DNA of 64,000 bases, taken from assembly GCA_963733195.1 (NCBI GenBank), contig CAVTCR010000073.1, positions 128,001-192,000 of the forward strand, read 5' to 3'. Below are positions 1 through 12,849 of this stretch, one piece after another. Each line of letters opens with the position of its first letter. Position 1 is the stretch's first letter. The notes below the pieces were generated by a model, which did no database searches, was not told the DNA's origin, and saw only the letters and a list, made by a program, of their open reading frames with translations. Source of the stretch: an uncultured delta proteobacterium (GTDB lineage: Bacteria > Desulfobacterota > Binatia > Bin18). The translations under genes were made by a program, and so were the position numbers.

Positions 1-68
1 CCAAAAGAACAAGTTGAAAAGATTCCCAGCCAATACGTCGCATCATTGAGGAGCATCCGTATGCACAT
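1..68 (-). CDS. Possible 5' end of a gene running off the window edge
   Basis: ATG at 68 preceded by GGGAGG on the minus strand; only about 22 codons are visible. Confidence 0.25.
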   Translation of the reverse strand, partial: MCIRMLLNDATYWLGIFSTCSF

Positions 69-129
69 GAGACCTCCCGGAAAAGGGGCGACTTCGTGCC
101 CCACCGGGTGCTCCCTCGAAAATAGTGGC

Positions 130-1384
130 TTAACCAGGCAACGCGAGGGAGCGCTCTTCTAGGCTTTGGACGGTCACGTGTAGCCCAAGGCGTTCGAGTC
201 GCTTCAGGAGCATCCGTTTCCGGTGGTCGGCGTTGAGGCGGTCCACATAATCTGCACCCAATTCTCGGTCCGGCTGTTTGGCTTTGAGCCTATGATACAC
301 TATCCCCAAGATCGTATGGGCGACGGCGACAATCGCGCGCTTCTTCCCCTTACGGGCAGCGAGGCGACGGAACCGAGTCGCCAAGTAGGTGTCCTTGGTA
401 TGCGACGCCGCCCAAGCAGCTTGACAGAGACTACGCCGCAACCACGCGTTCCCCTTACGAGAGGTCCCCGACAAGCGCTTGCCAGCGCTCTCGTGATTGC
501 CGGGACACAGACCCGCCCAGCTGGCCAAGTGCTGGGCAGAAGGAAACTGCTCCTTATTCACTCCGATCTCGGCCACCAGATTGGTGGCGGCGACCTCCTC
601 AATGCCGGGAATCGTCGTACACAGGGTGATAGCGTCCTGGTACTCTGTGACATGCGCTTAAATCTGTTCGTCCAGCCTTGCAATCTGGGATTCCAGGAAT
701 GCCAATTGTTCCCACTGCGAGACGCAACCGCCAGCGATGGTGGTCTGTGAGGCGGCCGTGGAGCGCGAGCTGCAGGGCGGGAATCTTCTCCCGCAAACGG
801 CCGCGGGCTAGGTCAGCGCGTGTGGCGACATCTTCTTCCCCGCCAGCAGTTGGGCGGGCATAGCGCGGCCCAGAAACCCCTAACCAGTCACTCGCCACCG
901 AGGCCAGCTTGAGGTTAGCGTCCTCCAGGATCTTTTGCCTGCGCTTGGCGACCGCCGTGTGATCCTGACGCAGACTCGTTCGCAGCCGGGTGAGGTCCCG
1001 CAGCTCCCGTATCGGCGGTGGAGGCCAGAAGCTGCCCCGCAGCAACCCCTGCTGGAGTAAGTCCGCAATCCATTGATAGTCTTTCGGGGTCAGTTTTGCG
1101 GCCGGGGACCGCTTTGATGTGCTGAGCATTGATTAGCAACACCTCAAACTGTCCTTCCAGGATGTTCCAGACCGGCTGCCAATAAACCCCCGTGGATTCC
1201 ATTGCCACATGAGTGACCTGCAGGCCGTGCAACCAGTCTGTCAACTCCAGCAGGTCGCGGGTCATGGTCCCGAACCGACGAATCTCCTGCTGGGTGGTAC
1301 CGGCAGCGTCCCGCAGAAGAACACAGGTGGTGATCCTCTTCTTGTGCACGTCCAATCCACAACAGCGAGCATACCTGACGCACC
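130..1384 (-). pseudogene. IS110-family (DEDD/RuvC-like plus Tnp20) transposase, several frameshifts
   Basis: Motifs CCGLDVHK, AMESTGVYW, GRKTD and the C-terminal ASWAGLCPGNHESAGK, spread over ORFs 915-1355, 599-1129 and 130-576; AGGAGG RBS near 1392-1397. Confidence 0.9.
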
Positions 1385-1399
1385 TGCCTCCCTCCTTCC

Positions 1400-1628
1400 A
1401 CGCGTCAAAAGCCGAGCGTCTACTCTCAGTAGACTCTCCCTCGCGTGCTCGCCACTGATAGCGGCGGCGACAATTCGTTATGCCTGCGGGCGCTCCGGTT
1501 ACACTGGTGCGCGGGCTTCTACAGCGCCAGCACCCTTCAACCTCTCTGCTCTTGACGACGCACCCTCAAGAGAAGCACAGTCCGTCCTCATTTTCATCCT
1601 TCACTGTGAGCACTCAGCTCATCACCCA
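1400..1628 (-). ncRNA. Predicted IS110 bridge RNA
   Basis: Non-coding end upstream of the transposase, with guide-like matches to the reconstructed target (1504-1510, 1527-1535) and donor junction (1436-1443, partial at 1472-1482). Confidence 0.7.
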
Positions 1629-1680
1629 CTGGTGCCATTCGCAAACCCAGGACGCGCGAGGGTAGGTGCGGAGGCACTGC

Positions 1681-1990: not shown

Positions 1991-2797
1991 GGCTTTGTCG
2001 CAACTTTGCAGGTGAGAGTTGATCCGCTATGCTTCTTCCCTGATTGGGCGGTGGAAGAGGAGCGGGATGAGCGATTTCAAGGGGAGCCCATTTGAGCGAG
2101 AGATCATTATGTGGGCCGTACGGTGGTATGTTGCGTATCCCATCTCTTATCGACAGCTCGAGGAGAGGATGGGCGAGCGAGGGGTGGCTGTGGATCATTC
2201 CACCCTTAATCGGTGGGGCATTAAATACGCTCCCGAGTTTGAGAAGCAGTTCCGTTGCCGGCAGCGCGCCGTGGGAAAGAGCTGGCGGCTCGACGAGACC
2301 TACGTGAAAATCAGAGGGAAATGGGCGTATTTGTATCGCGCCGTCGATAAAGACGGCCACCCCATTGATTTTTTGCTGACCCCCCAGCGCGATCGGGACG
2401 CTGCAGAGACCTTCTTACGCAAAGCTATTCGTAGTCAGGGACTCCCAGAGAACATCACGATCGACCAGAGTGGCAGTAACACGGCAGCAATCACGCACTA
2501 CAATAAGACGCAGAAGACCGCGCTTGTCATCTGCCACTCGAAATATCTCAATAACATCGTCGAGCAAGACCATCGGGCAGGGAAACGGCTGACGCGTCCC
2601 ATGTTGGGTTTCCAATCCTTTTGGGCGGCCCGCTGTACGGTCGCCGGCATAGGGGTGAGGCATGCGATTCGCAAAGGCCAGCTGATATGCACTGGGAATG
2701 CACCTCAAACGCCGGCGGAGCAATGCTATGCTTTGGCCGCATAAGTCACTAAAAGTAAATACTACGCTCGTCTCCATTTTAACTTTGCGACGGAATC
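1991..2797 (+). mobile_element. IS6-family insertion sequence
   Basis: Imperfect terminal inverted repeats GGCTTTGTCGCAACTTT (1991-2007) and AACTTTGCGACGGAATC (2781-2797); no target-site duplication. Confidence 0.8.
2067..2744 (+). CDS. IS6-family DDE transposase
   Basis: AVRWY..YPISYRQLEE, WRLDETYVKIRGKWAYLYRAVD, YLNNIVEQDHR; RBS GAGGAG before ATG 2067. Confidence 0.92.
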   Translation: MSDFKGSPFEREIIMWAVRWYVAYPISYRQLEERMGERGVAVDHSTLNRWGIKYAPEFEKQFRCRQRAVGKSWRLDETYVKIRGKWAYLYRAVDKDGHPIDFLLTPQRDRDAAETFLRKAIRSQGLPENITIDQSGSNTAAITHYNKTQKTALVICHSKYLNNIVEQDHRAGKRLTRPMLGFQSFWAARCTVAGIGVRHAIRKGQLICTGNAPQTPAEQCYALAA

Positions 2798-3576
2798 TTG
2801 CATAGTGCTGCTCAATGTACGTGTCGTATTCATGCACTTGGGTGGTGTAGAAATCATACAAGGCCAGCGCCTGCTTGAGGGCAAAGACGTGTTCGGGCCG
2901 GTAGTGGCCGCTCAGCGCTTTGGCAATCTCGGCGGCACTCGCATGGCAGCGCTCATGGCGTAGCTGGGCCAGGGCCTGCGGATCACGCTCGCCCGCGACG
3001 ATCGCGCGAATCAGCCGCAGCCCGGTGAGACCCATAATGTCACTCACCACTTGCGTCAACTAGCACGTTCATCTGCTGCAACGCTTTCTGCATATGCTGG
3101 ATATGCGTGGCGCGATTCTCGAGCAACATGGTCCGTTGCCGCAAATAGGTCCGCAACACCCGCATCTCTTCCGCCGGACGAAAAGACGCCGTGAGCAACC
3201 CATAGCTATGCAACTGCTGCAACCACTGACAATCTTGTACCCCGCTCTTGCGCCCCGGCACGTGCTTCAGATGGCGCGCATTGACCACCTAGACCTCCAT
3301 CCCGCGTGCTTCCAACACTTCATAGAGCGGAATCCAATACACCCCTGTCGATTCCAGCGCCACGCTCGTCACCTGACACTGCCCCAACCAATCCGCCAAC
3401 GCATACAAGTCTGGCGTAAACGTGCCAAAGGCCCGCACCGGCTGCGCCGCGCGCTCGGCGGGCACGCTGACCCACATCTCTTCCGCTCCAATGTCCACCC
3501 CCGCCGCCGCACGATTCTGTACTCCCAGCTTCGGGGGTACTACCGCTTGGGGCGCCCGCCGCTTGGGTCTCTGCAT
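2798..3576 (-). pseudogene. IS110-family transposase (copy 2), with in-frame stop and frameshift, truncated by IS6
   Basis: AAGVDIGAEE, VALESTGVYWIPLYEVLE, VNARHLKHVPGRKS; TAG at 3289-3291; homology ends at the IS6 right inverted repeat. Confidence 0.88.
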
Positions 3577-3830: not shown

Positions 3831-3969
3831 CAGCATGAACGGGTGTTCTGGTTTAAGGTGAGGATTATTCCGCTTGTCCTGAGCGTCGTCGCGTAAGCGA
3901 CAAAGTCGAAGGGCGGAGAGAAAGGAGACGTTGCACGCGGGCAAATTTTCCTCTCCTTCTTCCGTTCCT

Positions 3970-4722
3970 CTATCGAAACAAATCCGCCTCTGCTGGACGA
4001 ATTAGCTTCTTGCTGTCACCTTCAGCGGGAATAAACTGATAACCTCGGATGATAACTGCCGGGACTCCAGCTCCTTTTTCCATTAATAATCCTGCGGCGG
4101 CAGCAAGTTCATCAGCGACCGCGACAACCGTGTGATGCAGCTCGCGTCCCCGTAGGTCAGTGGCACCACGGAGATCGAGTAATGGCTCAAGTCCTGACAC
4201 ACCAAGCGCGAACTCGACCAGCCCATCACGCCATGGGCGACCAAATGTATCGGTGATGATAACACCCAGTGTGACTTTGCGCTGTTCTTGGAGGGCAAGC
4301 CGTAGCGCACGAGCTGATCCATCAATGTCCTTGGGAAGAAGAATAGCGATATCATCCCCAAGGCTGTTCGATTCATCCATCCCTGAGTTTGCGCACACCC
4401 AACCATGCTTGGTCTCGGTGATCACCACACCGTTCTTCATCCGCACGATACGGCTACTCTCACGCAGAACGACCTCTACTGCTCGTGGGTCTTTGTCCCA
4501 TTGCGTGGCGATTTGCTGTGCGAAGGGTGAAGGCTCGACAGTTTTGAGATCGACGATCGCCCCTTCTGCCTTTGACACGATCTTCTGACAGAGAATAACC
4601 ACATCGCCGTTTTGCAGGCCAATCTGTGCCTTATCGATAGCGCTTAGCAAAATCGCTGGGAGGTTGTCTCCTGGAGAAATTGCTGGGATACCGGGAATGG
4701 GAATGATTGAGATTGTATTCAT
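3970..4722 (-). CDS. cofE: Coenzyme F420-0:L-glutamate ligase
   Basis: QKIVSKAEG, CANSGMDESN, DTFGRPWRDG, AVADELAAAA motifs; adjacent to cofD. Confidence 0.93.
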   Translation of the reverse strand: MNTISIIPIPGIPAISPGDNLPAILLSAIDKAQIGLQNGDVVILCQKIVSKAEGAIVDLKTVEPSPFAQQIATQWDKDPRAVEVVLRESSRIVRMKNGVVITETKHGWVCANSGMDESNSLGDDIAILLPKDIDGSARALRLALQEQRKVTLGVIITDTFGRPWRDGLVEFALGVSGLEPLLDLRGATDLRGRELHHTVVAVADELAAAAGLLMEKGAGVPAVIIRGYQFIPAEGDSKKLIRPAEADLFR

Positions 4723-4770
4723 AATATCCTAATGCATGATGCGTGAAACGTAATGCGTAAAGTGTGAAAC

Positions 4771-4812
4771 GTAGAACGTAAACTCTGACGTTGTCGCGCG
4801 TTTACGTTCTAC
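4771..4812. repeat. Perfect 13-bp inverted repeat within a 7-nt periodic tract
   Basis: GTAGAACGTAAAC (4771-4783) and GTTTACGTTCTAC (4800-4812). Confidence 0.6.
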
Positions 4813-4815
4813 TCT

Positions 4816-5787
4816 TTATGTATTCTGAGGCAAGCAGCGTTTCTTGTGAGGATATTCTATAACGGCCTGTGCTAACGCAATCGATTTCTCCATATCGCTC
4901 ATAATCGTGTCAGTGACGATCACCGATATGCCGAGTTGCTCTATCTGTTGCCTCTGTTGCTGGTCTTGTGAATCAATGACAAAAGTATTGAGGAAGTCCC
5001 GATAAAGACCAGCGACGCCGACCGCTGAGACATCGATTCCGAGACCACTGAGTAAGCGGTCTGCGGGTCCTTTGATTGGCTTGCCGGCAACGAGCGGGCT
5101 GATCGCAACGATTGGTGCGGCAGTTTCTCGCAATGCCGATCGCACGCCGGGGAGTGCCAGAATCGGACCAATACTTACAATCGGATTGCTCGGCGGAAAA
5201 ATCACTAGATGTGCAGAACGAATCGCATCGCAGACGTCAGGAGCGGCAGTCGCGTCCTCGATGCCACGGAATTCGACATTATTCACAGTTCCCTCACTTC
5301 GGCGTTTAACAAAATATTCCTGAAACGGAAGTGCTCCAGCTTCGGTGTGAACAATAGTACGCACAGGATCGTTACTCATGGGAAGAATAGTGGCACGGAC
5401 GTTCCATGATTGTGCGATGGCCTGAGTGATTTCGCTCAGTGACTTCCCCTGGCGCAATTGTTGGGTACGGAAGAGGTGCGTGGCAAGATCGGTATCCCCC
5501 AAACCGAACCAGTTCTCAGGATAGTAGCGACCTAATGCGTTGAGGCAGCGAAAGGTTTCTTCTGGAAGTCCCCAGCCCTTTCCCGTATCCACTGAGCCGG
5601 CGAGCGTATAAGTGATCGTATCGAGATCAGGGGAAACTGAGAGGCCAAAAAATTCGTCATCATCCCCAGTATTAACGATGACACACAATCGCACTGGATC
5701 TATGACGCGTACAAGGCCGCGTAAAAAACGTGCGGCGCCAACTCCTCCAGCCAGAGCAGTGACGGTGAGATCTGTGGGTATCGTCAC
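4816..5787 (-). CDS. cofD: 2-phospho-L-lactate/EPPG:FO transferase (CofD/FbiA)
   Basis: LAGGVGAARFLRGL, VNTGDD, SPDLDT, WFGLGDTDLATH, PSNPIVSIGPIL, KGPA. Confidence 0.95.
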   Translation of the reverse strand: MTIPTDLTVTALAGGVGAARFLRGLVRVIDPVRLCVIVNTGDDDEFFGLSVSPDLDTITYTLAGSVDTGKGWGLPEETFRCLNALGRYYPENWFGLGDTDLATHLFRTQQLRQGKSLSEITQAIAQSWNVRATILPMSNDPVRTIVHTEAGALPFQEYFVKRRSEGTVNNVEFRGIEDATAAPDVCDAIRSAHLVIFPPSNPIVSIGPILALPGVRSALRETAAPIVAISPLVAGKPIKGPADRLLSGLGIDVSAVGVAGLYRDFLNTFVIDSQDQQQRQQIEQLGISVIVTDTIMSDMEKSIALAQAVIEYPHKKRCLPQNT

Positions 5788-5855
5788 GCGCGCTCCTGGC
5801 CTGCCCTTTTATTATTTCCCCGTTTCGCCTGTGGGGAGAGTAATGTGTGGCGAGG

Positions 5856-7142
5856 TTAATGTGATACTTGCTGCTTCTCGCGTTCAAACGGATGGACGTA
5901 GCGAAATTGGTCGGAGGCAGCAAGTCGTTTGTATGAACCAAAACGTTCGTCTGGATTCTCAACCAGATCAAGCGGACTCAATTCCTCATCATCACCCGTA
6001 AAGATTTTTCGCAAGGTGTACGTTGTCGTGCGTTCCGCTGGGGTGCGCCCGAGGTCGCGTGTCAACCGGCGTAATTCCTTAGGTGGGACGAGTTGTCCAT
6101 ATTGTGCGCCAGCCGAGGTGGAGATGCTTTCATTAATGAGCGTTCCACCAAGGTCATTGGCACCTACAGTCAATAGATATTGCGCCATCTTAGGGCCTTC
6201 TTTGACCCACGAAGCCTGAATGTTGCGGAACGTAGGTCCCAACATCAGCCGAGCAACTGCATGCATCTTGACGACTTCCGCGCCAGTCGCACCTTGTCGG
6301 ACATTCTTGACGAGCTTGCGTTGGTACATCGGGGCTTCTTGATGAATCAACGAGAGTGGCACGAATTCCGTAAACCCACCGGTCTCTTTCTGAATATCAC
6401 GTAGCAAGTTCATGTGCTTGACCCAGTGCACCGGAGTCTCGACATGGCCATACATGATAGTCGAGGTCGTCGGGATTCCGAGACTGTGAGCAGATGTGAT
6501 GACCTCGATCCACTGTTGTACCGTCACACGGCCTGGGGCAATAATGTCACGAATATCCTGATCGAGAATTTCTGCCGAGGTTCCTGGCAGAGTGCCTAAG
6601 CCTGCTTCTTTCAACTCTTTGAGATACTGGATGACTGGAATGCCGGCACGAACAGAGCCGTAGTTCACCTCCTCCGGTGAAAACGCATGAACATGCAGAT
6701 CAGGCAATACTTTCTTCACCGCTCGGGTCAGATCGATGTACAAGCGACCATCCATCTTTGGCGGTAAGCCTGCTTGCATGCAGACCTCAGTGGCCCCCAT
6801 ATCAACGGCTTCTTGTGCGCGCCGAATAATTTCTTCCATGGGCAGGAAGTAGCCTTGTTCTTCGCGATACTCGCGGCTGAACGCGCAGAAGGTGCAGTGT
6901 TTGATGCAGACGTTCGTGAAGTTGATGTTGCGATTGACAACGTACGTGACGACTTCACCGACGTGGCGGCGACGCATTTCATCAGCGACGAGGCCTACAG
7001 CTTGAAGGTCAAGACCGTTGGTGTCACACAGCCGTAGACCTTCGCTCCACGAAATCTCCTCACCATCGAGAGCACGATTAAGGATCGTGCTCACTTCACG
7101 ATCAACATGTTCAAGGATAGCAGTCAGTCCGTTGGTTACCAC
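5856..7142 (-). CDS. cofH: FO synthase subunit 2 (radical SAM)
   Basis: YVVNRNINFTNVC...CTFCAF, GATEVCMQAG, PGTSAEIL, NIQASWVKEG; follows cofG. Confidence 0.92.
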   Translation of the reverse strand: MVTNGLTAILEHVDREVSTILNRALDGEEISWSEGLRLCDTNGLDLQAVGLVADEMRRRHVGEVVTYVVNRNINFTNVCIKHCTFCAFSREYREEQGYFLPMEEIIRRAQEAVDMGATEVCMQAGLPPKMDGRLYIDLTRAVKKVLPDLHVHAFSPEEVNYGSVRAGIPVIQYLKELKEAGLGTLPGTSAEILDQDIRDIIAPGRVTVQQWIEVITSAHSLGIPTTSTIMYGHVETPVHWVKHMNLLRDIQKETGGFTEFVPLSLIHQEAPMYQRKLVKNVRQGATGAEVVKMHAVARLMLGPTFRNIQASWVKEGPKMAQYLLTVGANDLGGTLINESISTSAGAQYGQLVPPKELRRLTRDLGRTPAERTTTYTLRKIFTGDDEELSPLDLVENPDERFGSYKRLAASDQFRYVHPFEREKQQVSH

Positions 7143-7244
7143 GGTAAAACTCCTCAGGATTAAAACGTCAAACGTGATGCGTGAGAGTTGCTCACTCCCT
7201 AGGCTCGTTTTGCGCCTTAGTCATTACTCGTTACGTCTGTATTC

Positions 7245-8402
7245 TTAGCAAGCCGCCACTTGCTCTTGTAATTCTTGGGTGCGCGGGCGTAGTGCAGGTA
7301 AGAGAAATCCTGGACGTGTAATGTACTCTGGGTAAATCGCGAGCCGTTCCCGCAACGTGAATCCCTCCTCTTCACATGTCTGTGCGAGCGTTACCAGGTG
7401 AGGCCATGCCGCTTCGGGATTCACGTAATCTTTCGTTACTGGTGAAATACCGCCCCAGTCGTTAATTCCTGCACGCAGGATCAACTTATGATCATGTGGG
7501 CTGAGGTTGGGCGGCGCTTGCAGGTTCATCTTCCCACCCAAGAGCAGTCGTGCAACCGCGACTGTTTTCGCCATCTCCAGACTTTCGGGCTCTGGCGCAT
7601 CAGCCATGCGCGTCTTCGGCTTGGCTCGAAAGTTCTGCACGATGACTTCCTGAATATGGCCGTACTCCCGGTGAATGTCCCGGATGGCGATAAGGCTATC
7701 GACACACTCTTCGCGCGTCTCGCCAATACCGATAAGGATGCCGGTTGTAAATGGAATCTCCAGCTCACCGGCTTCACGTAACATGCGCACACGTACGACA
7801 GGATCTTTGTCAGGTGCAGAGAAGTGGGCCATACCACGTTGGCGTAGGCGCGGGCTGATATTTTCCAGCATCAGACCAAGACTCACGTTCACTTCCTTGA
7901 GCCACTTCATTTCGTTGTAGCTCATCACCCCAGCGTTGGTATGTGGCAACAGTCCCTGCGTGAGTGCGATTTCGCATGCACGATAGATATACTCGGTGGT
8001 GTTCTGATGGCCAAATCCGGCGAGTGTGGCACGATAACCGCTGTACGCGAGCTCTGGTTTATCCCCTAAACACATCAACGCTTCTTTGCAGCCCTGGGCT
8101 CTGCCGCGCTTAACCCAGTCAAGAATCTCGTCTGGTGTCATAGTCCACGCATCAGGATCACGTGGATCTTTGCGGAACGTGCAATACGAACACCGGTCAC
8201 GGCATAAATTGGTAACCGGGAGGAACACCTTACGCGAATATGTAACTGTCCTCCCCTTATGGCGATCACGAAGCTCCCCTGCAGCTGCCAACATGGCAGG
8301 GACATCTTCGTCGGCGCAGCTGATGAGCGTATAACCTTCCTCAGCGGAAAGCGACTTGTCCTGAAGGGCTTTGTTGAGAATCACTAAAAAGTGAGGTTGC
8401 AC
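7245..8402 (-). CDS. cofG: FO synthase subunit 1 (radical SAM)
   Basis: TYSRKVFLPVTNLCRDRCSYCTF, LPHTNAG, HIQEVIVQNF, QAPPNL, GINDWGGISPVT. Confidence 0.95.
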   Translation of the reverse strand: MQPHFLVILNKALQDKSLSAEEGYTLISCADEDVPAMLAAAGELRDRHKGRTVTYSRKVFLPVTNLCRDRCSYCTFRKDPRDPDAWTMTPDEILDWVKRGRAQGCKEALMCLGDKPELAYSGYRATLAGFGHQNTTEYIYRACEIALTQGLLPHTNAGVMSYNEMKWLKEVNVSLGLMLENISPRLRQRGMAHFSAPDKDPVVRVRMLREAGELEIPFTTGILIGIGETREECVDSLIAIRDIHREYGHIQEVIVQNFRAKPKTRMADAPEPESLEMAKTVAVARLLLGGKMNLQAPPNLSPHDHKLILRAGINDWGGISPVTKDYVNPEAAWPHLVTLAQTCEEEGFTLRERLAIYPEYITRPGFLLPALRPRTQELQEQVAAC

Positions 8403-8580
8403 GGAGATCTCCTGCCAACGCTTGCCCGAGTATTAGTGGAGGGGGGTGGTAATGTCAACCAGGTTTTTGCCGAAATATCACTTTTCTGTGATATTACTAA
8501 ACAATATTCTAGCGAAAAGTCTGAAATGATGAAGATTGTAGAGACACTCTCGCTCGCATCTCTACACAAAGGAGGAGAGA

Positions 8581-9453
8581 TTACACGATTTTATTCAACG
8601 GATACTCGATAATTCCTTCAGCTCCGTTCTTGATGAGCTTGGGAATAAGTTCCCGAACTACTTCTTCGCTAATCACACTCTCTACTGCGAACCAATCACT
8701 GTGATAGAGCGGCGAGACGGTTGGTGCGTTGAGACTCGGCAGCATGTTCACAACGGTATCGAGTTTTGCTCTCGGTACATTCAGTTTAATGCCGACCTTG
8801 GCTTCCGCCATGAGCGCGCCTTTGAGCAACAGCGCAATTTGCTCAATCTTCTCGCGCTTTCCTGGATCTTTCCAGGCTTGCCGATTGGCAATGATCTGGG
8901 GATTCGAAGTAAACAGCTCCCACACAATCTTGAGTCCATGCGCACGAATAGTCGAGCCAGACTCGGTCACTTCTACAATCGCATCGACCAAGCCTTCAGC
9001 TGCTTTGGCTTCGGTTGCACCCCACGAGAACTCTACGTCGACTTTGACCTTACGTTCAGCAAAATAGCGGCGTGTATACTCGACTAACTCGGTGGCGATC
9101 CGTTTGCCTTGCAGATCTTCCGGCGTGCGGATGGGAGAATCATGGGGAACGGCAAGGACCCAGCGCGTCGGTTGAAAACTGGCTTTGGAATACACCAGGT
9201 CAGAGATGACCTCAACGTCGGCATCGTACTCCATGATCCAGTCTTTACCAGTAATGCCAGCTTCGAGCGTGCCAGACTCAATGTAGCGTGCTATCTCTTG
9301 GGCACGCACCAGCATGCAACGGATTGAGGGGTCGTCGATGCTGGGAAAATAACTACGAGAACTAGTTGTGATTTTCCATCCAGCCTTGCGAAATAATTCG
9401 ATAGTAGAATTCTCAAGGCTTCCTTTGGGAATACCAAGCTTTAATGCATCCAT
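8581..9453 (-). CDS. hisG: ATP phosphoribosyltransferase (long form)
   Basis: [28 protein letters not shown]-terminal regulatory domain ending [11 protein letters not shown]; start at ATG 9453. Confidence 0.95.
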
Positions 9454-9514
9454 ACGGAAAAAGTTCCTAACATAGGGGTAGCGGGGTCGCAAGTTGGACG
9501 GTGTGAAGATTGTG

Positions 9515-9748
9515 TTACTGACCACCGCGCACGTGCTGCTCAAGCAGTTGGATATGGCGACGCAGCAGGAGGTCGCGATTGCGAAGGGCTTCGACTGCAT
9601 CTTGAGTGAGTCCTGCGACCGCTTTGGGGTCACACGGCACGACATAGGTGACTTCTGGCAGGGCTGGCCCTGGAGGCAATGGCTGGACCCTCGTACTAAA
9701 TGAGCAACCGGAGAAAACCAATCCTAATATAACCAACCCCTTCCTCAT
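9515..9748 (-). CDS. Small hypothetical lipoprotein (77 aa)
   Basis: RBS GAGGAG; [15 protein letters not shown] lipobox; Pro-rich linker followed by a predicted helix. Confidence 0.7.
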
Positions 9749-9853
9749 GATCTCCTCTTTCACACAAGTGCACACATAGTCGTCCCGAGTGGACTCTGCT
9801 ACATATGGCACGCGTACGGCTTTGACAAGACACGCGAGGTGGAGGACAGGACG

Positions 9854-10894
9854 ATGAAACTTGCCGAGATTGCCCAGCGACTTGGGTGTGAGCTGCGAGG
9901 AGACGGAGATGTCGAGATCGCTGGGATGAATAGCATCGATGAAGCGCAACCACATGAGATGACCTTTGTCGCGAACAAAAAATATCTGGCTAAACTGGCG
10001 ACGACCAAAGCCGCCGCTGTCATTCTTGCTCCTACTGACCCAGACACAGCTCTCCCGTCCCTGCGAACGCCGGACCCCTATCTCGCTTTTGCCAGAGTAC
10101 TTGAATGGTTTTATCCGCCCTATGTTCCTCCAGTTGGGATACATCAAACTGCGGTGATTGCACCGACTGCACGCATTGGTGTATCCGCTTTTGTCGGGCC
10201 ATACGTGGTTATTGGTGAGAACGTTATGATTGGCGATCATGCGCGGATTTTTGCTCATGTTGTGATTTATCCAGACGTCCAGATTGGCCATTCGTTTACC
10301 GCACATGCTGGGGTAGTGGTTCGTGAGGGAACGAAAATCGGAGACCGTGTGGTCTTGCAAGGCGGAGTAGTGATTGGTGGTGATGGGTTTGGTTATGTAC
10401 CGCTTCCGGACGGATCAGCCTATAAAATCCCGCAAACCGGGACCGTTACGCTCGCAGATGACGTTGAGATCGGTGCGAATACCACGATTGATCGTGCGGC
10501 GATGGGAACCACTATGATTCGTCGCGGTGCAAAGCTCGACAACCTCGTCATGATTGGTCATGGCTGTGATGTCGGAGAGGGAGCGCTTCTTGCTGCGCAA
10601 GTGGGACTCTCGGGGAGTACCAAACTAGAAGCTGGGGTACGTATGGGTGGGCAAGTCGGGGCTGCGGGCCATCTGACCGTGGGAAAAAATACGATGGTTG
10701 CAGCGCAAAGCGGTATTCCCCACGATGTACCGGCGAACTCAGTAGTCGGTGGATACCCTGCGGTTGATATTATGTTGTGGCGGCGCTATTCGGCAGCATT
10801 GCCGAAGTTGCCCGAGCTCATGCGCAGGATACGTCGACTTGAACAAGCGCTGCAAGGGAATGAAGAATTAAAAATAAAGAGTGAAAACCAATAA
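9854..10894 (+). CDS. lpxD: UDP-3-O-acyl-glucosamine N-acyltransferase
   Basis: Hexapeptide repeats, IGGDGFGY, VEIGANTTIDR, KLDNLVMIGH. Confidence 0.95.
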   Translation: MKLAEIAQRLGCELRGDGDVEIAGMNSIDEAQPHEMTFVANKKYLAKLATTKAAAVILAPTDPDTALPSLRTPDPYLAFARVLEWFYPPYVPPVGIHQTAVIAPTARIGVSAFVGPYVVIGENVMIGDHARIFAHVVIYPDVQIGHSFTAHAGVVVREGTKIGDRVVLQGGVVIGGDGFGYVPLPDGSAYKIPQTGTVTLADDVEIGANTTIDRAAMGTTMIRRGAKLDNLVMIGHGCDVGEGALLAAQVGLSGSTKLEAGVRMGGQVGAAGHLTVGKNTMVAAQSGIPHDVPANSVVGGYPAVDIMLWRRYSAALPKLPELMRRIRRLEQALQGNEELKIKSENQ

Positions 10895-10966
10895 AAGACT
10901 CAGGAAAAATACGCAGCAATCCATATCCTACGATTACTCTGCATTCCCCATTTTCCATTCTTCATT

Positions 10967-11608
10967 TTGTTGGTGATGCTTGTGGCCCGCACAAAGAATC
11001 CATCTCCTCTACCCAACCGTAAAGAATCACAGGAGGATTGGATTCTGGATGACCAGGCCCTGGTGGCGGCGGTTGCACGTCAGGAACAGGAGGCCATCGA
11101 GCGTCTGTATGACCGATATCACATTATGGTGTACCACCTCGCCCGCAAAATCCTGAATGCTCCAGACCGTGCTGAGGAGGTCGTCTACGACGTATTTTGG
11201 CAAGTCTGGCGCGAGGCTGGACGTTACGATGGACAGCGCGGTAGCGTTGGTGCGTGGTTAACCACGCTCGCGCGTAGTCGAGCGATTGACGCGCTACGAG
11301 TACGAAAAGTTCAACCCTCGACAATAAACGACACAGAACTTGCGGAACGTTCCCTGCTCACTGACCCGACACCGAACCCAGAGGAACACACGGGCCTCGA
11401 GCAGCGAGCTGCCCTTGTGCGGATGGCAATAGAAACGCTACCGACTGAGCAGCGAGCCGCCCTGGAATTAGCCTTTTTCCGCGGATTGTCACACAGTGAA
11501 ATCGCCGAACATCTAGACGAACCCGTTGGGACGGTCAAAACACGTATTCGCACAGCTATGCTACGGCTGCGAGACCGCTTACGTCCACTTCTTGGTGGTA
11601 CCTCATGA
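10967..11608 (+). CDS. ECF RNA polymerase sigma factor (SigK-like)
   Basis: AEEVVYDVFWQVW, WLTTLARSRAID, LAFFRGLSHSEIA, PVGTVKTRIR; overlaps the anti-sigma gene (ATGA). Confidence 0.9.
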   Translation: MLVMLVARTKNPSPLPNRKESQEDWILDDQALVAAVARQEQEAIERLYDRYHIMVYHLARKILNAPDRAEEVVYDVFWQVWREAGRYDGQRGSVGAWLTTLARSRAIDALRVRKVQPSTINDTELAERSLLTDPTPNPEEHTGLEQRAALVRMAIETLPTEQRAALELAFFRGLSHSEIAEHLDEPVGTVKTRIRTAMLRLRDRLRPLLGGTS

Positions 11609-12849
11609 CGCATCAAGAGTTGAAAGACCTTCTGCCGCTCTACGTTGTGGGCGGGCTCGATTCGGAGTCCATCGCTGAGGTCGAATATCACCTTGACACT
11701 AACTGTGACTCATGTCCAGACGAGCTTCGCGAATGGCGAGAAGTCGCGGGTTTGATTCCTTTAGGAGCAACCCCAGAGGGCCCGAGCGCAGGAGTAAAAG
11801 AGCGACTATTGCAGCGTGTCAGACAAGAGAACGGTACCGCCAAGGTCATTCCCTTGCGACCACGGCGATGGCAGGCCTCGTGGATTACGTTGCCGTTGGC
11901 CGCTGCCGCTGCAATACTCTTAGTGATTGGCGGGCTGCGGTATCGTGGTCTGACGACGCTGGTTGCAACCCAAATGCAACGCATTGAAGAACTTACTGTT
12001 CGTACGGCAGAACAGGCGGCGCAGGCGGAAACAATTGGGTCACTGCTCAAACAAGAACAAGCGAAACTCGCGAGTCGCGATACGGAAATCCAACGGCTCA
12101 CAGCCTCGCTTGCTGAATACCATTCCGCCAGCACAGGGAAATCGCAGCAAGTGATTACACTCGAAGCTGCGCTCGCGGAACAACAACAGCGGGTTGCTGC
12201 ACGTGAGCAGGAGTTAGCTCGAGTGAAAGAGCAAGCTGTGGCGACGGAACGCGAACTTGCGCAGACGCGACGAACCAGCAAGGAGCGCCTGGAATACGCA
12301 ACTGCGGCTACCGCTGCTCAACGTGAGATCCAACGTCTGAGGGTGGAACTTGCGCAGGCGCAAGAAGATGTCGCGACCAGCGAACGCGAAGTGCGAGATA
12401 TGCGGGGCCAGATAGAACAACAGCGGACTTTGGTAGCAGTGAGTACACGCGAGCTTGACCACTTACGTGAGGCTGTTGCACGTCAACGCGGCGTGATCGA
12501 AGTACTGACTTCACCTGGAGTGCGGGTTGAGTATCTGCGTCACGCGATGCCTGGTCTTGAGACTGAAGGACATGTACTCTGGAATGAGCGGAAGAAAGCG
12601 TGGGTGTTCTACGCTTTTCGTATGCCACAGCCAGAACAGGGCAAAGAATATCAAGTTTGGTTTATGACTGAAAAAGAAGGCCCAGTCAGTGCGGGAGTAT
12701 TCATGCCTGATCAGTCAGGGACTGGGCAGGTTCTTGCTGCTCCACCATCAAAGTTATTCGGCAAGATTACTGCGGTCGCAGTAACGTTGGAGCCGAAGGG
12801 TGGTCTGCCTAAACCGTCGGGGGCGATGTACCTTCGTGGATCGCTCTAG
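11605..12849 (+). CDS. RskA-type anti-sigma factor with a long coiled-coil insert
   Basis: N-terminal HLDTNCDSC zinc motif, one TM helix, C-terminal YQVWF...PVSAG...AVTLEPKGGLPKPSG RskA domain. Confidence 0.85.
   Translation: MTHQELKDLLPLYVVGGLDSESIAEVEYHLDTNCDSCPDELREWREVAGLIPLGATPEGPSAGVKERLLQRVRQENGTAKVIPLRPRRWQASWITLPLAAAAAILLVIGGLRYRGLTTLVATQMQRIEELTVRTAEQAAQAETIGSLLKQEQAKLASRDTEIQRLTASLAEYHSASTGKSQQVITLEAALAEQQQRVAAREQELARVKEQAVATERELAQTRRTSKERLEYATAATAAQREIQRLRVELAQAQEDVATSEREVRDMRGQIEQQRTLVAVSTRELDHLREAVARQRGVIEVLTSPGVRVEYLRHAMPGLETEGHVLWNERKKAWVFYAFRMPQPEQGKEYQVWFMTEKEGPVSAGVFMPDQSGTGQVLAAPPSKLFGKITAVAVTLEPKGGLPKPSGAMYLRGSL

Follow-up and report, generated by a model that had tools for sequence, protein, structure and literature searches.

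A bridge RNA with three readable guides in a decayed IS110-family insertion sequence of an uncultured delta proteobacterium

Closest described systems and the element in the window

Bridge RNAs of IS110-family insertion sequences have been known since 2024, and a preprint of 2026 (10.64898/2026.10.21.760802) models 32,190 of them, so that finding one is not news in itself. The closest described systems are summarized here and compared below. In IS621, the RNA comes from the left end, which carries the right donor and abuts the left target; the donor is the junction of right and left end (RE-LE), read as left donor, core, and right donor, and the 5′-side guides are identical to the left halves (PMC11208160, PMC11208158). 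After the right target guide comes a handshake guide of 2 nt (PMC11208158). In IS1111-type seekRNAs, the complement of the target's top strand comes first and that of the bottom strand second, and the order is reversed in the IS110-type element ISEc21 (Siddiquee et al., PMC11187229). Here, we analyzed a stretch of 64,000 nt from an uncultured delta proteobacterium (contig CAVTCR010000073.1, positions 128,001–192,000; the whole stretch is referred to as the window). Positions 111–1630 of the window very probably represent a decayed IS110-family insertion sequence with a real bridge RNA, transposase and RNA both lying on the minus strand. Family assignment, boundaries, stems, and the covariation of three guides with DNA were established in this analysis.

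The family assignment is based on the transposase. Three overlapping minus-strand open reading frame (ORF) pieces of the window carry the Pfam domains PF01548 (DEDD_Tnp_IS110), i.e., the N-terminal DEDD (RuvC-like) domain (E 1.3e-10 and 2.2e-06), and PF02371, the C-terminal Tnp domain (E 7.3e-18 on window positions 133–576). An intact orthologue (locus L018, contig G016:C133) shows 87% identity across the full length and contains an open frame of 417 aa. It scores 310.5 bits on the NCBIfam model NF033542 (“IS110 family RNA-guided transposase”, cutoff 140), a score that belongs to the orthologue. The orthologue can also be aligned (E 2.5e-21) with the transposase of IS621, for which a structure has been solved; the motifs D, E, DxxD, and ES coincide, and the conserved serine of its HESAG faces YESGS of IS621. 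According to PMC11208158, D, E, and DxxD are catalytic residues; this correspondence refers to the motifs.

Regarding the boundaries, four relatives could be aligned at 70–87% identity. Three of them begin to match at window position 111, and in the fourth, G016:C133 (87% identical), the match extends beyond both ends as a result of its similar target site. In transposase orientation, the RE end ...TTTTCGAGGG-AG is conserved across relatives and followed by differing flanks. As both junctions have only CT in common, the core comprises exactly 2 nt. The element was first proposed, with its guides, from the letters of the window alone (the original prediction); the strings quoted there are all present at the positions given, and the ends of the relatives lie at the same bases as those of the window copy. 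The non-coding parts measure 243 nt upstream and 17 nt downstream of the transposase gene (tnp), which corresponds to the layout of the IS110 group. The features are listed below by window coordinates and strand.

106–110, plus: left target GGGTG on the guide-defined top strand; flank adjoining the short end, equal to the non-core part of the 5′-side guide (1531–1535, reverse complement); flank and guide covary in relatives
111–112, plus: left copy of the core dinucleotide CT, where the matches of relatives begin
113–129, minus: short non-coding end downstream of the transposase stop (RE in gene orientation); 113–118, CCCTCG, acts as right donor
130–1385, minus: IS110-family transposase pseudogene; both start codons lost, 1-nt insertions or deletions (indels) near 719, 838, 868, and 1085 relative to the intact orthologue
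1388–1395, minus: putative Shine-Dalgarno-like GGAGGGAG before the former start, assigned from its position alone
1417–1628, minus: predicted bridge RNA gene in the long non-coding end (LE), from a 55-sequence alignment and consensus structure
1436–1443, minus: right donor guide plus core, RNA CGAGGGAG (CTCCCTCG on the plus strand), matching the other end
1446–1472, minus: hairpin of the donor-binding loop (helix 6; 4 of 4 pairs changed on both sides, 93.4% of cells paired)
1473–1484, minus: 5′ side of the donor-binding loop, where the left donor guide is expected; not decodable, with a nearly invariant 8-mer GG[AC]ACAAC
1488–1492, minus: 5′ strand CGCCC of the donor-binding loop outer stem (helix 4), read by eye from the alignment
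1497–1501, minus: 3′ strand TAACC of the target-binding loop outer stem, from alignment and covariation
1502–1510, minus: right target guide plus core plus 2-nt handshake guide, RNA GCACCAGUG; 9 of 9 positions match in the window
1513–1528, minus: inner stem-loop of the target-binding loop (GG-n-GC ... GCCC, one bulged base), read by eye; helix 3, 81.3% paired, a figure that includes one subfamily misaligned by MAFFT
1529–1535, minus: left target guide, RNA GGGUGCU (left target plus core); 7 of 7 positions match in the window, covarying with the flank
1538–1542, minus: 5′ strand GGTTG of the target-binding loop outer stem, pairing with 1497–1501 (98.9% of cells paired)
1607–1621, minus: 5′ stem-loop (TGAGC / GCTCA; helix 1, 93.9% of cells paired, 3 of 5 pairs changed on both sides)
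1620–1628, plus: left donor CATCACCCA, which forms the tip of the RNA-bearing end; the handshake guide pairs with its last 2 nt (76 of 77 loci)
1629–1630, plus: right copy of the core dinucleotide CT, read from the sequence
1631–1635, plus: right target GGTGC, opening a stretch that resembles an IS6-type inverted repeat, with an IS6-family transposase fragment next to it
1684–1986, minus: C-terminal fragment of an IS6-family transposase (PF13610, E 2.1e-10), pointing at the junction

Guides and structure of the bridge RNA

In total, 121 loci were compared, comprising the window, 40 loci from genome contigs, and 80 of 175 confirmed relatives from metagenome contigs. The set spans Acidobacteriota and Paenibacillus and includes recombinases down to 45% identity; a search of plasmids added remote relatives only, one record at 60–80% identity and the rest below 60%. 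The conserved motif of the second loop was present in 103 of the 121 loci. In the relatives, the junction at the RNA-bearing end was placed by a structural pattern that is blind to the flank.

Both target guides change with the flanking DNA in homologues, the behavior on which the original prediction had asked to be judged. The left target guide of the window, GGGTG-CT, equals its own flank exactly, and the nearest relative has GGGTT-CT beside GGGAT. Across 71 loci with 38 distinct pairs of guide and flank, the mean longest shared run was 5.16, compared to 3.56 for permuted pairs, and none of 20000 permutations reached the observed value. A guide of 9 nt, CCAGCACCC (1527–1535), had been proposed here. 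Its positions 1529–1535 were borne out; as 1527–1528 lie in a stem with the first two G's constant in the compared family consensus sequences, these two are not part of the guide, which comprises 7 nt. The 5′ side of loop 1 matches the reverse complement of AG plus the other flank.

The right target guide was longer than expected: CTGGTGC (1504–1510) is present as predicted, and the real extent is 1502–1510 (CACTGGTGC on the plus strand), the added 2 nt covering the last 2 nt of the element, i.e., the handshake position. The 3′ side of loop 1 carries a 9-mer that is identical to the 5-nt flank plus AG plus the first 2 nt of the element in 70 of 77 loci; within it, the five flank positions agree in 71 and the two element positions in 76 of the 77 loci. 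Nine classes of right guides, including GCACC, GCAAC, GCGAC, GGATG, AGCTA, GGGGC, and CCGTT, match their flanks at 38 of 45 positions versus 21.2 when permuted (reached by 4 of 100000 permutations). The third guide is the right donor guide, whose predicted place at 1436–1443 was confirmed by covariation: in 83 of 85 loci and in two covarying versions, the 3′ side of loop 2 is identical to the final 8 nt of the downstream end, core included, with CAGGGTAG in both guide and end of the Paenibacillus subfamily where the others have CGAGGGAG.

The structure was derived from a MAFFT alignment in which the non-coding end is represented by 55 non-redundant sequences; from it, RNAalifold yielded the outer stem of loop 1 and the hairpin of loop 2. 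When completed by hand to 26 pairs, the structure had 85.7% of cells paired, compared to 77.9% in column shuffles (reached in 0 of 500) and at most 55.7% with the partners slid. The pairs vary in a compensatory manner, e.g., one pair in the outer stem of the target-binding loop is C-G in 28 sequences and U-A in 24. Two internal loops with conserved closing stems were thus found, the outer stem of the donor loop by eye only. This helix 4 is only 53.7% paired because the alignment stops there, and its partner strand (1417–1421) is mutated in the window copy, reading AGACG versus GGGCG in close relatives. The substitutions that break this closing stem form a perfect 6-bp hairpin, GTCTAC-TGAGA-GTAGAC (1417–1435), which is probably incidental. 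The guides lie between covarying stems and not within them. Of the matches proposed originally, only the first two positions of the 9-mer (1527–1528) fall into a stem.

Two G-U pairs are present without exception in the 55 sequences, and several more are frequent. On the other strand they would give A-C mismatches, which argues that the RNA runs in the direction of the transposase. A scan of the integrated copy found neither promoter nor terminator, and the lack of a sigma-70-like promoter on either strand is what can be said in favor of an RNA from the plus strand, antisense to the transposase. Such an RNA is extremely improbable, as it would have to tolerate A-C mismatches at the positions that are invariantly G-U in 55 of 55 sequences; moreover, by our own reasoning, neither loop on the plus strand fits the IS621 rule that the 5′ side equals left target plus core.

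Points against a bridge RNA and the state of the window copy

For transcription, RNA ends, protein binding, and chemistry of the element, we infer a course analogous to that of IS621. An active copy would excise as a circle, which would join the ends into the donor CATCACCCA-CT-CCCTCG (plus strand of the window) and would transcribe a bridge RNA of ~200 nt from the long non-coding end (~1417–1628, minus strand). In the first loop, GGGUGCU (1529–1535) is identical to left target plus core and would hence pair with the bottom strand, and in the second loop, CGAGGGAG (1436–1443) would pair with core plus right donor. Strand exchange at CT by the DEDD/Ser recombinase would follow.

Several observations weigh against this reading. 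The polarity of the element is unlike that of the two experimentally characterized IS110-type systems, so that the mechanism rests on analogy. Transcription of the bridge RNA is predicted from sequence alone. None of the public runs holds more than 0.14 of the sampled words of the stretch; the one certain RNA run gave a single 229-nt contig (242–470), and no contig of either RNA-labelled run lies on 1380–1654, results that are uninformative for expression. The fold that had been suggested as a check is, for the single sequence alone, not significant (z −1.22; 27 of 200 shuffles fold as well). No Rfam family matched at threshold, with four weak, unrelated matches at E 0.4 or worse. The target guides are also not uniform across the lineage: in subfamily C, the left target guide matches 5–7 nt of the flank and has AG or AA, not CT, at the core positions, and in subfamilies D and E it matches weakly. 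At the handshake position of the donor loop, most loci fit in the first base only, and the window shows no fit. Finally, searches of genome and window revealed no empty site homologous to the window locus, the 12-mer of the empty site occurring at background frequency in the genome (82 versus 66 control matches with at most one mismatch; 3 exact).

The point that touches the guides most directly is the left donor guide, which was not found. The left-donor tip of the element varies while the 5′ side of the loop, GG[AC]ACAAC, stays nearly constant; the mean match was 3.93 of 8 versus 3.95 for permuted pairs (with three loci, including the window, mis-anchored), and a free scan of diagonals gave no covarying diagonal. 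In the window, 3 of 8 positions match by eye in an IS621-like register, which does not make a guide. A match of 7/7 is restricted to subfamily E (L077/L121), and one pair reaches 7/8 in the 8-mer comparison. The partial match that had been taken for this guide (1472–1482, 7/11) is at chance level, since 977 of 1000 shuffles give at least 7/11, and it does not covary in this register. A left donor guide was thus found neither in that register, nor in the IS621-like register, nor on a free diagonal. From the proposed order on the transposase strand (left target, right target, left donor, right donor), left target, right target, and right donor guide are placed and the left donor guide is unsupported. 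Likewise, the description as a decodable bridge recombinase scaffold applies to three guides, and fails for the left donor guide, the recombinase gene, and the closing stem of the donor loop.

If the non-coding end were merely a leader or a promoter, its matches to flanking DNA would have to be due to chance. The insignificant fold of the single sequence is in line with this, and so, to a degree, are the frequencies of the guide words in one sequence. Among 5000 random 211-nt segments of the window, 82 contained a 9-mer of the rebuilt empty site; among 5000 shuffles, 142 did. The corresponding counts were 553 and 617 for an 8-mer of the rebuilt circle junction, and 21 and 16 for both words jointly. 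A joint frequency of ~0.3–0.4% is small, not negligible, and makes the joint observation improbable by chance. A mere leader is already contradicted because two target guides and one donor guide covary across 71–85 loci and the flanking stems show compensatory changes; the probability left to it is close to nil. We therefore regard the RNA as a real bridge RNA of the known kind, with three of its four guides supported.

The copy in the window is, nevertheless, a fossil that is unable to move on its own, because its start is lost, its gene carries four frameshifts, the closing stem of its donor loop carries mutations, and the nearest paralogue in the genome reaches only 50% identity. With the lost starts and four 1-nt indels, it holds no open, translatable gene. 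The extra bases at 719 and 1085 are absent from contigs of one public DNA run. Two further observations come from public runs: a 151-nt contig of one DNA run is identical to window positions 60–182 across the short-end junction, and a contig of another run has 2 differences over 102–388, followed by an unlike flank. The RNA of this copy might still be functional and used in trans by another IS110-family recombinase of the genome, given that its target-binding loop is undamaged, with a perfect match to the flanks of the copy, and that 13 matches to the transposase's C-terminal piece are present in the genome. We consider this very unlikely, as the best paralogous recombinase shares only 50% identity, the donor-loop closing stem is broken, and, apart from one truncated relic on contig C39, the genome was found to contain neither another copy of the element nor one of its RNA. 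This relic (L002, 1500–1607) is a solo, truncated RNA-bearing end of a related element, ending just past the left target guide with the flank CT-GTCGCG.

Polarity, target sites, and place in the family

As predicted from the window, the strand with the CT core is opposite to the transposase strand, unlike in IS621, and this holds in every decoded locus down to 45% protein identity; IS621-type polarity was found in none of them. As the 5′-side guide represents the strand opposite to the transposase, the RNA-bearing end carries the left donor and adjoins the right target. With the transposase strand as reference, the complement of the top strand comes first and that of the bottom strand second.

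The similarities to IS621 (Durrant et al. 2024, PMC11208160; Hiraizumi et al. 2024, PMC11208158) are extensive. They comprise the DEDD RuvC-like domain and the Tnp domain with its serine motif, the long non-coding end upstream of the gene, an RNA with a 5′ stem-loop and two internal loops, a target loop with left target plus core on its 5′ side and the complement of core plus right target, then the handshake, on its 3′ side, the CT core without target duplication beyond it, and a donor guide matching the element end. Besides the inverted polarity, in which the RNA-bearing end gives the left donor and lies next to the right target, the differences from IS621 include a protein that is ~90 aa longer and only remotely similar (E 2.5e-21), a right target guide of 5 nt plus core, the lack of a recognizable left donor guide in the window element, and its state as a pseudogene. 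ISEc21 (PMC11187229) likewise has an upstream non-coding region with two short RNA segments that match the two target strands, and it homes into another insertion sequence, i.e., into IS3-family transposase genes. However, it has the bottom-strand complement first, whereas the window element has the top-strand complement first, and the target of the latter is an IS6-family terminal inverted repeat and not a coding region.

The guide order could also point to an affiliation with IS1111. In that case, the system would have IS1111 polarity with the donor junction shifted across the RNA gene (a circular permutation), the RNA thus coming to lie upstream; the mechanism would be the same and only the affiliation another. 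The order of the two target-matching segments is indeed that of the IS1111-type elements ISEc11, ISPa11, and ISKpn4 and the reverse of ISEc21 (PMC11187229). In contrast, IS1111-type elements have the RNA downstream of tnp and subterminal inverted repeats of 7–17 bp (PMC11187229), neither of which applies to the window element: its RNA lies upstream of tnp and its downstream end comprises only 17 nt, as in the IS110 group (PMC11208160), and a subterminal inverted repeat was not found, the longest terminal inverted repeat of 6 nt being equalled in 424 of 2000 shuffles. The protein, with 412–417 aa, also exceeds the ~340 aa quoted for IS1111 types (PMC11187229). Altogether, an IS1111 affiliation appears rather unlikely, and we retain the element in the IS110 group on the basis of its layout and terminal repeats. 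In the passages of main text covered by the literature searches, there was no statement on an upstream bridge RNA of reversed polarity or on targeting of IS6 repeats, and the polarity combination is likewise absent from the section considered of the 2026 survey of 32,190 bridge RNAs (10.64898/2026.10.21.760802). It may already be catalogued in supplementary data.

Regarding the target sites, close relatives are read, from the flanks of loci L081–L113 and L039–L043, as inserting into the terminal inverted repeats of IS6-family elements. In the clades nearest to the window, T[TG]GC[AG][AC]C closes the RNA-side flank in 30 of 30 cases, and the rebuilt sites read GG[CT]T-CT-G[GT][TC]GCAAA. In four of five relatives tested, an IS6-family transposase (PF13610) starts 10–90 nt from the junction and reads away from it. 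At ~5–20 and ~360–375, respectively, L084 and L092 have an uninterrupted partner repeat 98 nt away that is equal to the rebuilt site, a spacing that suggests miniature IS6-derived elements. Terminal inverted repeats of other mobile elements as targets are a further likeness to IS1111-type elements; IS4321 and IS5075 target Tn21-family inverted repeats. The IS6-repeat reading is based on loci other than G016. There, the flank was considered as the end of the neighboring IS6 copy and rejected, that IS6 ending 32 nt away. At L018 ~1440–1493 (G016:C133), a different IS6 subgroup is found, with the end ...CAAGTTGACAAGGCC and many copies in G016; the IS6-type repeat at L018 may be a remnant cut by this second IS6.

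The site of the window copy is a less typical version of the IS6-type repeat. No partner repeat of it was found in the window, and the IS6 fragment beside the element is single-copy in the genome. Further along, a full IS6-family transposase (PF13610; 2019–2741, plus strand) is preceded by the inverted-repeat-like GGCTTTGTCGCAAC (1987–2001), which has a 15-nt inverted partner 1.9 kb away (3897–3911). An ORF lying between them at 2418–3059 (minus strand) has no Pfam match; the region is a nest of insertion sequences. It is followed at 3970–12849 by genes of F420 biosynthesis (CofE, CofD, CofH/CofG-like radical SAM), hisG, lpxD, and an ECF sigma/anti-sigma pair, i.e., an ordinary chromosomal context in which no resistance gene adjoins the element. 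Another kind of site was observed in subfamily C (L042–L064, L118–L156), where nearly all readable downstream flanks share at least 100 nt (AAGGCCGGTCTCC...GGAGACCGGCAATGAAGAAG), including a ribosome-binding site and ATG, with L058, L074, L118, and L122 as exceptions. On this sequence evidence, subfamily C is taken to home to a repeated locus ahead of a conserved ORF.

The locus provides a worked example of how public sequence alone suffices to read three guide segments and to test them by covariation. It also shows that elements with an upstream RNA do not share one fixed polarity of their ends relative to the genes, which matters when targets or orientation are predicted by the rules of IS621, and it adds IS6-family terminal inverted repeats as a natural target class. 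As no left donor guide was found, it may be asked how much pairing with RNA is needed for donor recognition in this lineage. Tentatively, the lineage from Acidobacteriota to Paenibacillus could represent an undescribed bridge architecture, combining an upstream RNA with IS1111-type polarity, with one branch homing into IS6/IS26-family terminal inverted repeats and a left donor that is hardly paired with RNA in close relatives; we regard this as a possibility, and not as the likelier outcome. If it is true, the arrangement would be what is expected where a programmable donor junction can migrate around the circular form, and the IS6-homing branch would be a parasite of another transposon, splitting the end of that transposon.

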